Shown here piece after piece: positions 3,590 to 7,495 of a stretch of 64,000 bases of DNA. The stretch's first letter is position 1; the number at the start of each line of letters is the position of its first letter. Where the stretch lies: contig CBDIDH010000002.1 in NCBI GenBank assembly GCA_965277595.1, positions 2,893,737 to 2,957,736 on the forward strand, given 5' to 3'. Below the pieces are notes generated by a model. The model was given only the letters and a program-made list of their open reading frames with translations. It made no database searches and was not told the DNA's origin. The position numbers and the translations under genes are program-made. Source of the DNA: Isosphaeraceae bacterium. Lineage in GTDB: Bacteria; Planctomycetota; Planctomycetia; Isosphaerales; Isosphaeraceae.

Positions 3590-3700
3590 AGTTCAGGGGT
3601 TCTTCTTGTTGTCAGGACAAAGGACAAAGGACAAAGGGCAAAGGGCAGAAGACAGATTTTGTCCTTTGCCCTCTGCCCTTTGTCCTCTTGAACTTGAGCC
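3590..3700. repeat. intergenic hairpin element, GGACAAA/GGGCAAA-type (copy A)
   Basis: Left arm 3628-3653 (AGGACAAAGGGCAAAGGGCAGAAGAC) pairs with right arm 3661-3686 at 23 of 26 positions. Loop is AGATTTT. Extra GGACAAA units lie 5' of the stem. Located between convergent csrA and FHA genes. Confidence 0.85.
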
Positions 3701-3713
3701 ACCCAAGACAACC

Positions 3714-4235
3714 CTAATCCAGATCAATAATCACGTCGTCATCGTGAGTGCCCGGCTTCGAGGCGAGCAGCTTGCGCCAGCCGGCATCGTCATCGCTGTC
3801 ATCGTCAAGGATCTCCAGGGCCTCGGCCTTACCCTCGGAGGACGGGGGCGGGAACCCGGAATCGGATTTCGCGGGCGCGGCCTTGGCAACCGCCACGGGC
3901 CGACCGGTCCCCTTACCAGGGTCCGGTCGTTCCGAAGGGCCAGGGACGTCGTCGGGTCCAAGATAGACCCGCATCTTGTAGCCGCCGAGCGTGATCCGGT
4001 CTTCGGGCAAGAGCGCGGCCCAGCGAATCTTTTGACCTTTGACCTTGGTTCCGTTCGTGGTGGCGAGATCGCGAATCACGAGCAGTCCGTCGGTTTTGAC
4101 GACCACGCAGTGCCGCTTCGAGAGGCTATGGTGATCAATCACGACGTCGCAATAACCCTTGCGTCCGATCACCGTGAGGTCCTTCGTGATCGGAATGGGT
4201 GGGTCCCCGTTACTGGGCACTAGCTCGGCTTTCAT
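3714..4235 (-). CDS. FHA domain-containing protein (173 aa) with acidic C-terminal tail
   Basis: ATG at 4235 inside the long ORF 3714..5426. LTVIGRKGYCDVVIDHHSLSKRHCVVVKTDGLLVIRDLATTNGTKVKGQKI is a typical FHA core. Confidence 0.82.
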   Translation of the reverse strand: MKAELVPSNGDPPIPITKDLTVIGRKGYCDVVIDHHSLSKRHCVVVKTDGLLVIRDLATTNGTKVKGQKIRWAALLPEDRITLGGYKMRVYLGPDDVPGPSERPDPGKGTGRPVAVAKAAPAKSDSGFPPPSSEGKAEALEILDDDSDDDAGWRKLLASKPGTHDDDVIIDLD

Positions 4236-4536: not shown

Positions 4537-4552
4537 TGGCACGTTTGGTGCT
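4537..4552 (+). promoter_or_regulatory. candidate sigma-54 (RpoN) promoter
   Basis: TGGCACGTTTGGTGCT matches the consensus TGGCAC-N5-TTGCW. It has the invariant GG and GC at the exact GG-N10-GC spacing and sits 170 nt upstream of the Gly-rich protein ATG. Confidence 0.4.
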
Positions 4553-4670
4553 CTTGTAATGTTGTTTTGCGTGACCTGGCAGGGTTCGGACCGTCGTGAG
4601 GACAAACGCCGAAAATTTGAGAAGGCGTTGGGCCAGCTTCGGGTCGGACTCGTATATGCTTGGGTAACCG

Positions 4671-4692
4671 CTCGCCCGACGGGCGAGTTTTT
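4671..4692 (+). terminator. rho-independent terminator-like hairpin inside the 5' leader of the Gly-rich protein gene
   Basis: CTCGCCC-GAC-GGGCGAG followed by TTTTT. It lies between the sigma-54 motif and the ATG at 4722. Confidence 0.45.
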
Positions 4693-4721
4693 CTACAGCT
4701 TTGCGTGGCGGAGTGCTTCCC

Positions 4722-7289
4722 ATGAACCGCTTCTTTGCCTTCGGAGTGGGAGCCTGCGTTGCACTGACCGCGGGTGGTCACCTGAAATCGGCGTCGGCAC
4801 AACAAGACGTGCCGCCGCTGGAACAACCCGCCGCCGTGGCGCCGGACCGTACCCAGACCGACCTCCAGCCGGCCCGCGAGGCCCCCGAGCAACTCGCCGC
4901 GGCCGATCCCGACGTGAATCGCCCCATTCGACCCTTGACCGAAGGGCCTCTCCACGAGGCCTTCCTCTCTCCGGCGAAGGATCGTGACGCGGTTCACGTC
5001 GAGAAGGCCCCTCCCCCGCCGATCGTCGAGCGTCCCGGCGTCGATCCGCCTGATCCCCGCGCCCAGTGGATCGAGGGTTACTGGGAATGGGACACCCCCC
5101 GCAAAGATTACACCTGGGTAACCGGTACCTGGCGCGTCGCGCCTCCGGGCCGCTTCTTCGTGAACGGTTACTGGAAGCGAGACGATCAGGGCTGGTATCG
5201 CGTCCCCGGCTTTTGGTCCGATCGCAAGACCGACCGTCTTGACTTTCGCAAGGACGGCCCGCCGACCGAACATCCCGCCGACAACCCCGGAGAATCTCCC
5301 GGCGCAGACTATTTTTACGTCCCCGGCCAGTATTTTCCCGACGGCGATGGCGTTGTCTGGAAGGCGGGCTACTGGGCGAAGGTCCAGTCCGGTTGGTCGT
5401 GGGTTCCCGCGCAGTGGGTCAAGCAACCCGAAGGCTGGACCTTTCAGGAAGGCTACTGGGACCGAACCCTTGAAGATCGCGGAACCCTCTTCGCCCCGGC
5501 ACAGGTCGCCGCGTCGGCCCGCGATGGCAACACGGTTTATCAGCCCTACACTCAGGTTTCACCTCAGAGTTACGGCCTTCTCTACGGGGCCTTCGGCCGT
5601 CCGAACTCCAACTATGACGGCTACCCCGGTTGCTACTACGACCCGACCGGACGTTACTACGGTTACGCCCAGTATGGCACGATCGGCAACTATTACGGCT
5701 ACCTTGATTACCCTTACTACGGCTCGCTTGGCTATCCCTATATCGCCCAACCCCTGAACTACGGCTACGGCGGGTACGGTAGTGGCTACGGCGGATATGG
5801 AGGCGGGTACGGCGGGTACGGTGGCTATGGAGGTGGTTACGGCGGGTACGGTGGGTATGGCGGTGGTTACGGCGGGTACGGTGGTTATGGCGGCTACGGT
5901 GGATTTGGGCTTGGAGGGTTGTTCGGCGGCCTCTTCGGGTTCGGCTATGGCGGACTCGGTTATGGCGGGCTTGGACTCGGCTACGGCGGCCTCGGCTACG
6001 GCGGTTATGGTGGCTACGGCGGTTATGGTGGCTACGGCGGATTCGGTGGCCTTGGTTACGGTGGTTTCGGCTACGGCGGTCTTGGTTTTGGCGGCCTCGG
6101 CTTTGGAGGTTTCGGCCTGGGACTGGGCCTTGGATTGGGTCTCGGCGGTTTTGGTTATGGTGGCTACGGCGGTTATGGTGGCTACGGCGGTTATGGAGGA
6201 TATGGAGGTTATGGCTACGGCGGCTATGGTCGCGGCGGATACGCCAATGGCGGCTATGGACGTGGTTATGGCAACGGTGGCGGCTACGGCCATCATTACC
6301 CCTTCTATCCTGGTGGAAATCACGGGGGTGGCTACGGCAACGCGAACCATAACAACTTTGCCTCGGCCAATTCCCGGTTCGGTATCGGCGGATCGAACAT
6401 CCGGGGCGGTTCGGTGCTGAACAACCGAAGCGTGGCCATGGGCCGGAATTCAGGAATGATGTCCCCGCCGTCGTCCAGGGCGTATGCGAACCCGTTCATG
6501 CATAACACGTCGATGAGCGGTGCCGGTGGAAATGTCCGGCACGCGGTTGGCGGCAATGGCATGTCCGGTTCGAACTGGCACGCCGGTTACAACGGAGTTC
6601 AGCACTCGGGCCTTCAGCAGCATTCGGCCGCTCGACCCGCGTTCAACTCGGGTCTCGGCAACAACGGACTGAACCACGCGGGCGGCCTTGGTGGCCTTGG
6701 TGCTGGTGGCCTGAACCACGCGGGCGGCCTTGGAGCCGGTGGCTTGAACCACGCGGGCGGCCTTGGCGGTGGTTTGAGCCATGCAGGTTCCGGATACACG
6801 CCTCGGGCCGGGGGTATCGGCGGAGGCCCGGCGATCAGTCGCGGCGGAATGCCGGGGCTGGGGGGTGGAGCGTTGGGAAATCAGGCCCACATGGCGAATG
6901 GGGGCGGTCTGAACCATGCCGGTGCTCTGGGGGCGACGATGCATCCCGGCGGTGGCAATGCGGGACTCGGCGGCCTGGGCGGACGTGGTTTCTCGCCTCC
7001 GGTGCATGCGGGAGGCGGTTACGGCGGTTTTGGAGCCGCTCCGCACATGGGGGGCGGCTTCGCGGCGGCTCCGCACATGGGTGGCTATGGCGGACACGTC
7101 GGCGGTCTCTCACCGGCGCATCTCGGTGGAGGTTATGGCGGTGGAGGTCATGTCGGCGGTTTTGGTGGATTTAGCGGCGGCGGCCACATGGGCGGCGGCG
7201 CGGTCCACATGGGGGGTGGCGGCGGTCATATGGGTGGCGGCGGCGGCCACATGGGTGGCGGTGGTCATGCCGGTGGCGGTCACCACTAA
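4722..7289 (+). CDS. exported YXWGXW-repeat protein with giant Gly/Tyr- and Gly/His-rich low-complexity region
   Basis: ATG at 4722, preceded by GGAG with a 7-nt spacer. Signal peptide MNRFFAFGVGACVALTAGGHLKSASA. W/Y repeats (GYWEWD, TGTWRV, NGYWKRD, AGYWAKV, EGYWD). Then (GYGG)n, (GGLNHAGGLG)n and a C-terminal (GGGGHM)n. Confidence 0.75.
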   Translation: MNRFFAFGVGACVALTAGGHLKSASAQQDVPPLEQPAAVAPDRTQTDLQPAREAPEQLAAADPDVNRPIRPLTEGPLHEAFLSPAKDRDAVHVEKAPPPPIVERPGVDPPDPRAQWIEGYWEWDTPRKDYTWVTGTWRVAPPGRFFVNGYWKRDDQGWYRVPGFWSDRKTDRLDFRKDGPPTEHPADNPGESPGADYFYVPGQYFPDGDGVVWKAGYWAKVQSGWSWVPAQWVKQPEGWTFQEGYWDRTLEDRGTLFAPAQVAASARDGNTVYQPYTQVSPQSYGLLYGAFGRPNSNYDGYPGCYYDPTGRYYGYAQYGTIGNYYGYLDYPYYGSLGYPYIAQPLNYGYGGYGSGYGGYGGGYGGYGGYGGGYGGYGGYGGGYGGYGGYGGYGGFGLGGLFGGLFGFGYGGLGYGGLGLGYGGLGYGGYGGYGGYGGYGGFGGLGYGGFGYGGLGFGGLGFGGFGLGLGLGLGLGGFGYGGYGGYGGYGGYGGYGGYGYGGYGRGGYANGGYGRGYGNGGGYGHHYPFYPGGNHGGGYGNANHNNFASANSRFGIGGSNIRGGSVLNNRSVAMGRNSGMMSPPSSRAYANPFMHNTSMSGAGGNVRHAVGGNGMSGSNWHAGYNGVQHSGLQQHSAARPAFNSGLGNNGLNHAGGLGGLGAGGLNHAGGLGAGGLNHAGGLGGGLSHAGSGYTPRAGGIGGGPAISRGGMPGLGGGALGNQAHMANGGGLNHAGALGATMHPGGGNAGLGGLGGRGFSPPVHAGGGYGGFGAAPHMGGGFAAAPHMGGYGGHVGGLSPAHLGGGYGGGGHVGGFGGFSGGGHMGGGAVHMGGGGGHMGGGGGHMGGGGHAGGGHH
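5757..6300 (+). repeat. in-frame short tandem DNA repeats encoding (GYGG)n/(GLGYGG)n
   Basis: Reiterated GGCTACGGCGGTTATGGT-like units throughout. The same region yields Ala/Thr/Val-rich shadow ORFs in other frames. Confidence 0.9.
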
Positions 7290-7390
7290 TCGCAACGCGA
7301 CGCCAGACGTTAGTTAACAATCGGGCTGTCCTGGAACTCTCCGGGGCAGGCCGATTTTTGTTGGAGCCATTTATCAAGTCTTTGCGAGAT

Positions 7391-7495
7391 GAAGAGGAAT
7401 CCCAGTGAAGGGCAAAGGGCAAAGGGCAAAGGGCAAAGGGCAAAGGGCAAAGGGCAAAGGACAGATTTTATCCTTTGCCCTTTGCCCTCTTCAAC
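7391..7495. repeat. intergenic hairpin element, GGGCAAA-type (copy B), asymmetric arms
   Basis: Seven tandem GGGCAAA units (7410-7458). Only the last about 17 nt (7445-7461) pair with TCCTTTGCCCTTTGCCC (7471-7487). The loop CAGATTTTA resembles that of copy A. Located between convergent Gly-rich gene and purH. Confidence 0.85.
7410..7458 (+). other. canonical G-quadruplex-forming motif (G3-N4)x7
   Basis: Seven GGG tracts separated by CAAA. Five tracts lie outside the base-paired part of hairpin copy B. Confidence 0.5.

Follow-up and report, generated by a model that had tools for sequence, protein, structure and literature searches.

The 64,000-nucleotide (nt) window analysed here (positions 2,893,737 to 2,957,736 of the forward strand of contig CBDIDH010000002.1, Isosphaeraceae bacterium assembly GCA_965277595.1) carries a gene, referred to below as the Gly-tail gene, whose 855-amino-acid (aa) product combines an export signal, a folded Trp-rich head and a glycine-rich tail of about 525 residues that is predicted to be disordered. 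A first-pass annotation of this DNA had described an exported protein in which a Trp/Tyr repeat domain is fused to an extreme low-complexity tail, and every feature that it listed is present in the frame. The gene is real and is conserved in soil planctomycetes of the family Isosphaeraceae, with an orthologue at E < 1e-100 in 45 of 60 genomes of the family. Coordinates are window positions unless contig C1 or C2 of the genome is named.

Layout of the gene and its product

The longest open frame (4701..7289, forward strand) begins with TTG and would encode 862 aa. The ATG at 4722, which gives 855 aa, is the likely start because GGAG lies 8 nt upstream of it and because an in-frame 'GGV' is conserved before the Met in many orthologues. 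The coding sequence and the segments of its product are as follows.

4710..4713, forward strand: Shine-Dalgarno-like GGAG, whose bases are conserved as the in-frame 'GGV'
4722..7289, forward strand: coding sequence, 855 aa plus stop, with orthologues in the 45 family genomes and a conserved neighbourhood
4722..4799, forward strand: Sec-type signal peptide, aa 1-26, with a basic n-region (MNR), a hydrophobic core and an AxA-like site; predicted cleavage after SASA
4800..4937, forward strand: Pro/Ala/acidic linker, aa 27-72, variable in length and sequence in alignment A1
4938..5591, forward strand: folded head, aa 73-290, with the conserved lead-in EGPLHEAFLSPAKD...PPxPIxERPG followed by two blocks of WXXGXW-type beta-hairpins
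5592..5756, forward strand: conserved Tyr-rich segment, aa 291-345, with many columns invariant in alignments A1 and A3
5757..6290, forward strand: Gly/aromatic tract, aa 346-523, of GYGG, GGLGY (three times), GLFG (twice) and GLGLGL units
6291..6320, forward strand: conserved island 1, HHYPFYPGGN, consensus HxxPFxPGG in A1 and A3
6459..6497, forward strand: conserved island 2, MSPPSSRAYANPF, family consensus GVxPPPSSRPFANPF
6573..6647, forward strand: conserved islands 3 and 4, NWHAGYNGV ... HSAARPAFN, with H634 and R638 invariant in A1
6666..6923, forward strand: GLNHAGGLG-type units, aa 649-734, three exact and two degenerate (GLSHAG, GLNHAGALG)
7044..7286, forward strand: Gly/His/Met terminal region, aa 761-855, with six HMGG units and the end GGGHH

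The N-terminus resembles a signal peptide (MNRFFAFGVGACVALTAGGHLKSASA, followed by QQ), and residues 2-18 are modelled as a helix by AlphaFold. A lipoprotein reading, suggested by the lipobox look-alike 'VGAC' in the signal peptide, was rejected because the orthologues do not keep the Cys found here at position 12. The predicted local distance difference test score (pLDDT) is below 50 for residues 19-61, most of which belong to the linker. The Tyr-rich segment that joins the head to the tail follows the pattern ...GRPNxxYDGYPG...YYGYLDYPYYGxxGYPY and contains D329, the last acidic residue of the protein.

Beyond this segment the composition becomes extreme. Gly accounts for 57% and Tyr for 20% of residues 346-545, with GGLGF variants accompanying the GGLGY units, and residues 546-650 are rich in Asn, Ser and Met. 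The richest 150-aa window (63% Gly) is the highest among the 10,844 long frames of the genome. In the full-length AlphaFold2 model, residues 310-855 have pLDDT values of 25-33, and their secondary structure is limited to one 3-residue helix (583-585); the conserved islands gain no confidence in that model, which thus gave no sign that they dock on the head. The tail of about 525 residues is accordingly predicted by this model to be disordered, and it has the make-up of a sticker-spacer low-complexity domain, that is, predicted disorder with regularly spaced aromatics in a Gly/polar spacer.

The underlying DNA had been regarded as a slippage-prone tandem repeat, which holds only to a moderate degree. 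Tandem Repeats Finder reported many arrays of 9-33 nt in 5763-6230, 6693-6766 and 7174-7261, and the GLNHAGGLG region contains a 33-nt unit in 2.2 copies (92% match). On the other hand, the longest exact repeated word is 38 nt, and the 33 GYGG units are encoded by 22 different DNA versions. Because the repeats are synonymously diverged, the Gly/Tyr tract is not simply a young product of slippage. The gene sequence is held by only three public runs, in metagenome-like contigs of unspecified type. Contigs of these runs include the 5' half of the gene, break inside the Gly/Tyr repeats and leave 6320-7400 uncovered, a coverage dip that, according to the tool's own warning, may be a filter artefact. 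In many metagenome assemblies such repeats cause gene calls to be truncated or to shift frame, which makes them an annotation hazard.

Conservation and composition of the tail

A word-indexed search with residues 60-340 retrieved 122 relatives, the top 65 or so of which (54-85% identity, 470-1046 aa) come from Isosphaeraceae genomes and metagenomes. The named relatives include members of Singulisphaera, Aquisphaera, Paludisphaera and Tundrisphaera, and many others belong to soil metagenome bins. Synteny and reading frames were counted over 20 orthologous loci in long contigs. The arrangement fliW-csrA, small FHA-domain gene (opposite strand), Gly-tail gene, purH (opposite strand) is kept in 13-18 of these loci, with the FHA gene as the upstream neighbour in 15, which indicates that the Gly-tail gene has been vertically inherited and is not mobile.

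Analysis of the same loci showed that the frame remains open over 691-1046 residues, 400-700 of them in the tail, in 18 of the 20, and that in 18 the C-terminus is a Gly-rich run closed by two of H, R or M (GGGGHR, GGGHH, GGGGRR, GGHMR, GGSMR). Orthologues lacking the low-complexity region had been named by the first-pass annotation as the outcome that would point to a non-functional expansion; the tail is kept in 18 of the 20 syntenic loci and in most intact database homologues. Two loci, L039 (G008) and L047 (G039), end early in unrelated, non-Gly text that looks out of frame, as do many database entries of 470-600 aa, and these early ends probably reflect frameshifts in the repeat DNA or errors in its assembly. 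Alignments of the intact orthologues contain four short conserved islands inside the tail, the third and fourth with the consensus W..NGV and H..ARPAF. Conservation of the frame, of the islands and of the C-terminus across more than 20 genera implies that the tail is translated and under selection.

Since Gly/His-rich repeats are here separated by conserved short motifs in a secreted, cationic protein, one could think of a precursor that is cleaved at the islands into Gly/His-rich cationic antimicrobial peptides, by analogy with some peptides of plants and arthropods. We consider this highly improbable, as genes for a protease, for immunity or for export are not linked to it, the tail, with 12 Arg and 29 His among its 526 residues, is only very sparsely charged, and the large folded head would be left without a role.

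The tail follows compositional rules that are shared among the orthologues. The 526 residues after D329 include no Asp, Glu or Lys and comprise 230 Gly (44%), 52 Tyr, 29 His, 15 Met and 12 Arg. Orthologue tails mostly contain 0-4 acidic residues and no Lys, with 26-44% Gly; 10-25 acidic tail residues are found in a minority of database homologues and also in L046 (10) and L052 (19). The aromatic fraction is steady and its type shifts, from Tyr in the protein studied here to Phe in many orthologues and Trp in Paludisphaera-like species. In the last tail segment of 15 orthologues, the contents of His and Arg are inversely correlated (r = -0.82) and add up to about 9% of the residues, so that His falls to 0-2% where Arg reaches 6-10%; Met varies from 1 to 10% in this segment. 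Direct His-to-Arg swaps within one repeat unit can be seen between Singulisphaera species.

The tail segments differ in how freely their lengths change. The Gly/aromatic tract spans 93-184 aa in 15 orthologues versus about 190 aa here, the longest measured, and the last segment spans 166-398 aa, with two nearly constant middle segments (medians about 65 and 58 aa). The first-pass annotation had expected the length to vary between relatives, and it does so even in four Singulisphaera genomes with nearly identical heads, where proteins of 870, 922, 955 and 1046 aa differ in the copy number of lineage-specific repeat units.

This variability is what one would expect of a mostly neutral low-complexity appendage, in which the head and the short islands are functional and the Gly tracts are tolerated filler that drifts by replication slippage. 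The wide range of tract lengths, the lineage-specific repeat units, the presence of the longest and purest Gly/Tyr tract in this particular genome and the early ends of L039 and L047 all fit this explanation. It is nevertheless improbable, because the lack of acids and Lys, the steady Gly and aromatic contents, the His/Arg compensation and the conserved C-terminus recur across many genera, which argues for selection on composition; in addition, the repeats are synonymously diverged and the same motifs occur in other secreted proteins. To judge from the alignments, selection seems to act on Gly spacers combined with aromatic and cationic residues in the absence of acids rather than on the particular chemistry of Tyr or His, since Phe or Trp can stand in for Tyr, and Arg for His.

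The same exchanges bear on two more specific functions, Tyr cross-linking and metal binding by His, which had been proposed for the protein and which do not hold up family-wide. A periplasmic or surface metal buffer, whose HMGGGG and GLNHAG repeats would bind Cu, Ni or Zn and thereby protect the envelope or store metal in the manner of bacterial metal-handling proteins rich in His and Met, could draw on the 29 His and 15 Met residues of a tail that has no competing carboxylates, on the six C-terminal HMGG units and on the Met retained in the last segment of orthologues. This analogy is unlikely to capture the function, however, as the replacement of His by Arg in many orthologues, including the direct swaps, means that His ligands are not required family-wide. 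Moreover, about 180 residues (346-523) are without any His or Met, and no metal-resistance genes adjoin the gene.

An adhesive for attachment or cell-to-cell aggregation, with the Tyr/Gly tail as an interfacial glue that might be hardened by Tyr oxidation like other biological adhesives rich in aromatics, would accord with the export of the protein, with the 20% Tyr in residues 346-545 and with the cationic and aromatic character of the tail, as well as with the growth of Isosphaeraceae as chains and aggregates, mentioned in the abstract of PMC5352709. As many orthologues have Phe or Trp in place of Tyr, residues that lack an equal oxidative chemistry, no oxidase or peroxidase gene is linked and no secretion route beyond Sec is evident, we regard it as just as unlikely as the metal buffer.

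The head domain and likeness to known proteins

The head, modelled by AlphaFold2 from residues 60-349 with an alignment of 61 sequences, has a mean pLDDT of 84.9 and a predicted template modelling score (pTM) of 0.82. The model consists of two blocks of short beta-hairpins with 16 short strands (pLDDT around 90), and five [WYF]xxGxW motifs fall within residues 114-250. The Pfam family PF12779 (WXXGXW) scores 16.4 bits with the N-terminal 349 aa and 16.9 bits with residues 60-349, just below the gathering score of 18 bits; the full-length protein gave no Pfam match at E <= 1, whether to PF12779, Lamprin or any tail family. Of the 61 aligned homologues, however, 39 match PF12779 at E <= 0.01 (best 2.5e-12), precomputed PF12779 matches exist for several relatives, and some close relatives are named 'YXWGXW repeat-containing protein' by NCBI. 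By sequence comparison, the head is related to, though diverged from, the uncharacterised WXXGXW family.

Like the head studied here, members of PF12779 are exported and have no solved structure, and the five motifs of our protein lie in predicted beta-hairpins. The conserved unit is larger in our case, where it spans about 220 residues and includes a lead-in motif of its own, and the Gly-rich tail falls outside the Pfam description. When the N-terminal 349 residues were searched exhaustively, 2,942 representative clusters were found, which makes the head a large family. Among 100 more distant homologues of the head, 94 have a low-complexity tail with a net positive charge, so that a folded Trp-rich head with a long basic disordered tail appears to be the plan of the family, of which the Isosphaeraceae version is the Gly-rich form. 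The genome also encodes two head paralogues without the Gly-rich tail, L002 (C2:274664-275815, 383 aa) and L003 (C1:280010-281110, 366 aa); one of them ends in a short Tyr/Gly/Pro stretch, and the second keeps only half of the head, with a different C-terminal part.

A relation to the BcpO lipoprotein and contact-dependent inhibition (CDI) was rejected: the BcpO model (NF037971) aligns weakly and locally with one WXXGXW hairpin pair, at 14-14.8 bits versus a cut-off of 80, and there is neither a lipobox nor any CDI genes nearby.

The tail has its closest counterparts in composition among eukaryotic proteins. Plant class I glycine-rich cell-wall proteins share with it the signal peptide, the long GGX/GYGG tracts with about 60% Gly and the regularly spaced Tyr, and both have been proposed as structural proteins of a wall or matrix. 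The combination typical of the plant proteins, a signal peptide with tracts of more than 50% Gly, is found in our protein. Unlike them, it is bacterial and without sequence homology to them, it has a folded N-terminal domain, conserved islands and His/Met- and Asn-rich modules, and its type of aromatic residue is exchanged among orthologues. A second likeness is to Lamprin and other matrix proteins with GGLGY repeats (elastin-like proteins and insect chorion), GGLGY being present three times in the tail. In Lamprin-like matrix proteins, repeats of the GGLGY type drive self-assembly. One orthologue weakly matches Lamprin (PF06403, E 0.0093), with no match for our protein itself, and by sequence the resemblance is one of a shared short motif, not of descent.

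Squid suckerins, histidine-rich beak proteins, the Nereis jaw protein, FUS-like domains and GLFG nucleoporins are eukaryotic and mostly lack a folded anchoring domain. These animal Gly/Tyr/His proteins and FUS-like or GLFG domains, likened to the tail here solely by their generally known composition, share with it the Gly spacers with aromatics and His, the scarcity of acids, the disorder (predicted in our case) and the modular build. Judged by sequence, the tail resembles the known Gly-rich proteins in composition and short motifs, not by descent.

Expression, companion proteins and a proposed role

Three further elements surround the coding sequence.

4537..4552, forward strand: candidate sigma-54-type promoter, TGGCACGTTTGGTGCT, with -24 GG and -12 GC, 185 nt upstream of the ATG
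4670..4693, forward strand: GC-rich hairpin followed by a T run, terminator-like, in the 5' leader about 30 nt before the ATG (terminator scan)
7326..7359, forward strand: hairpin followed by T5, resembling an intrinsic terminator, 37 nt after the stop codon (terminator scan)

The promoter candidate TGGCACGTTTGGTGCT matches 10 of the 11 sigma-54 consensus positions; such sites number 125 genome-wide, or about 0.003 per 400 nt of one strand. Motifs with at least 9 of 11 matches were found upstream of 7 of 28 orthologues, compared with 1.17 expected from shuffles (shuffle maximum 6). They lie mostly at about -90 to -165 from the start used, with one at -282, in leaders that are otherwise unalignable. 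The genome encodes rpoN and about 10 activator genes. On the evidence of these motifs, sigma-54 control of the Gly-tail gene is likely in this lineage. The terminator-like hairpin downstream is consistent with a single-gene transcript, both flanking genes being on the opposite strand. The leader hairpin sits between the promoter candidate and the ATG and could be an attenuator or stabiliser; a comparison of the leader with Rfam gave no match.

Other proteins with signal peptides and GYGG, GLGYG or HMGGGGG tracts are encoded in the genome. A 234-aa protein (C1:786548, forward strand) carries HHGGFGGG, GYGG and GLGYG tracts, and a 207-aa protein (C2:1939863-1940483, reverse strand) carries HMGGGGGHMGGG, GGYGGYRGG and GGLGYGG tracts and a Tyr-rich C-terminal end. 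Matches to the 207-aa protein were found in 27 of the 45 genomes with the large gene and in none of the 15 genomes without it; about 20 of them cover nearly the whole protein, in frames of roughly 170-400 aa. This co-occurrence (Fisher p = 3e-5 by genome and 0.001 by genus, with no phylogenetic correction) is consistent with a material made of several proteins. No sigma-54 motif was found upstream of the small Gly/Tyr genes, which therefore provide no evidence for a shared regulon.

A further small signal-peptide protein of the Gly/Tyr tract type is encoded at C2:382673-382960 (reverse strand), and two of the small proteins have in common the C-terminal motif TPGDGYRYP.YYNP....YYPV.R. In addition, the genome encodes a set of three exported paralogues, each about 590 aa long, with long (GGM)n tracts, an unusual Met/Gly type of low complexity, at C2:675926-677686 (reverse strand) and in reverse-strand frames starting at 1307538 and 4472802.

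The reading that we tentatively favour, close to evenly balanced as it is, is that the Gly-tail protein is an exported envelope or matrix scaffold whose head docks and whose tail self-associates and binds anionic polymers. The first-pass annotation had arrived at a similar structural role, and the analysis supports such a role as likely. The structure of the gene, the export signal, the folded head, the predicted disorder, the conservation and the compositional rules are shown here, and the location, the self-association, the binding partners and the regulation are what we infer. Transcription would probably start at the sigma-54 promoter, which would make expression signal-dependent. Once exported, the protein would probably be docked to an envelope component by its Trp-rich beta-hairpin head. 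In the tail, Gly would serve as a flexible spacer and the regularly spaced aromatics, here Tyr, as cohesive stickers, and sparse His or Arg together with Met would provide a weak positive charge that, with His, could respond to pH and metals. The tail might thus associate with itself through aromatic contacts and bind anionic envelope polymers through His and Arg, and it might form a gel-like coat or intercellular matrix jointly with the smaller secreted Gly/Tyr/His proteins that the genome encodes.

Several observations weigh against this scaffold reading. A Sec signal by itself leads to the periplasm, so that a surface or matrix location is an assumption, and no outer-membrane, lipoprotein or secretion-system signal was found in the protein. 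The sigma-54 motif is strong in some genera only (7/28 loci) and absent in several, and there is no sigma-54 activator gene within about 190 kb of the Gly-tail gene. The co-occurrence of the 207-aa protein with the large gene may mark one shared clade only. Foldseek detected no structural relative of the head in PDB (best E 0.15), a PDB profile search with the head gave low-complexity noise only, and literature searches found no paper on this protein family.

A broader version of the scaffold reading, which we regard as doubtful, is that most Isosphaeraceae build a previously unrecognised multi-protein envelope or matrix from exported, acid-free, disordered proteins of the Gly/aromatic/His(Arg) type. 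The large protein would be anchored by its WXXGXW head, and the small ones would co-assemble with its tail through aromatic and cation-pi contacts, forming a bacterial counterpart of the eukaryotic glycine-rich wall proteins and condensate-forming domains. In His-type species pH or metals would switch this material, and its induction would run through sigma-54.

Hardly any work has been done on exported proteins of bacteria whose disordered regions are very long, conserved, free of acids and of the Gly/aromatic type. If the tail is cohesive, the sticker-and-spacer principle of eukaryotic low-complexity proteins would extend to the bacterial envelope or matrix, and the large uncharacterised WXXGXW family would gain a first functional handle. 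The orthologues amount to a natural variant series, with Tyr, Phe or Trp as aromatics, His or Arg as cations and tails of about 385 to 700 residues.

As for the surroundings of the gene, the FHA-domain protein (173 aa, with an acidic tail) is encoded at 3714-4232 on the reverse strand and is divergently transcribed from the Gly-tail gene; the adjacency of the two may indicate a functional or regulatory link. Hairpin elements with arms of tandem heptamers (AAGGGCA/AAGGACA and their complement) lie at 3590-3700 and 7391-7495, at convergent gene ends, and bracket the FHA gene together with the Gly-tail gene. The window contains 13 matches, compared with 0.03 expected by chance, and a third copy of the heptamer hairpin is located directly upstream of the gene for the 234-aa Gly/Tyr protein (C1, about 786062-786140).

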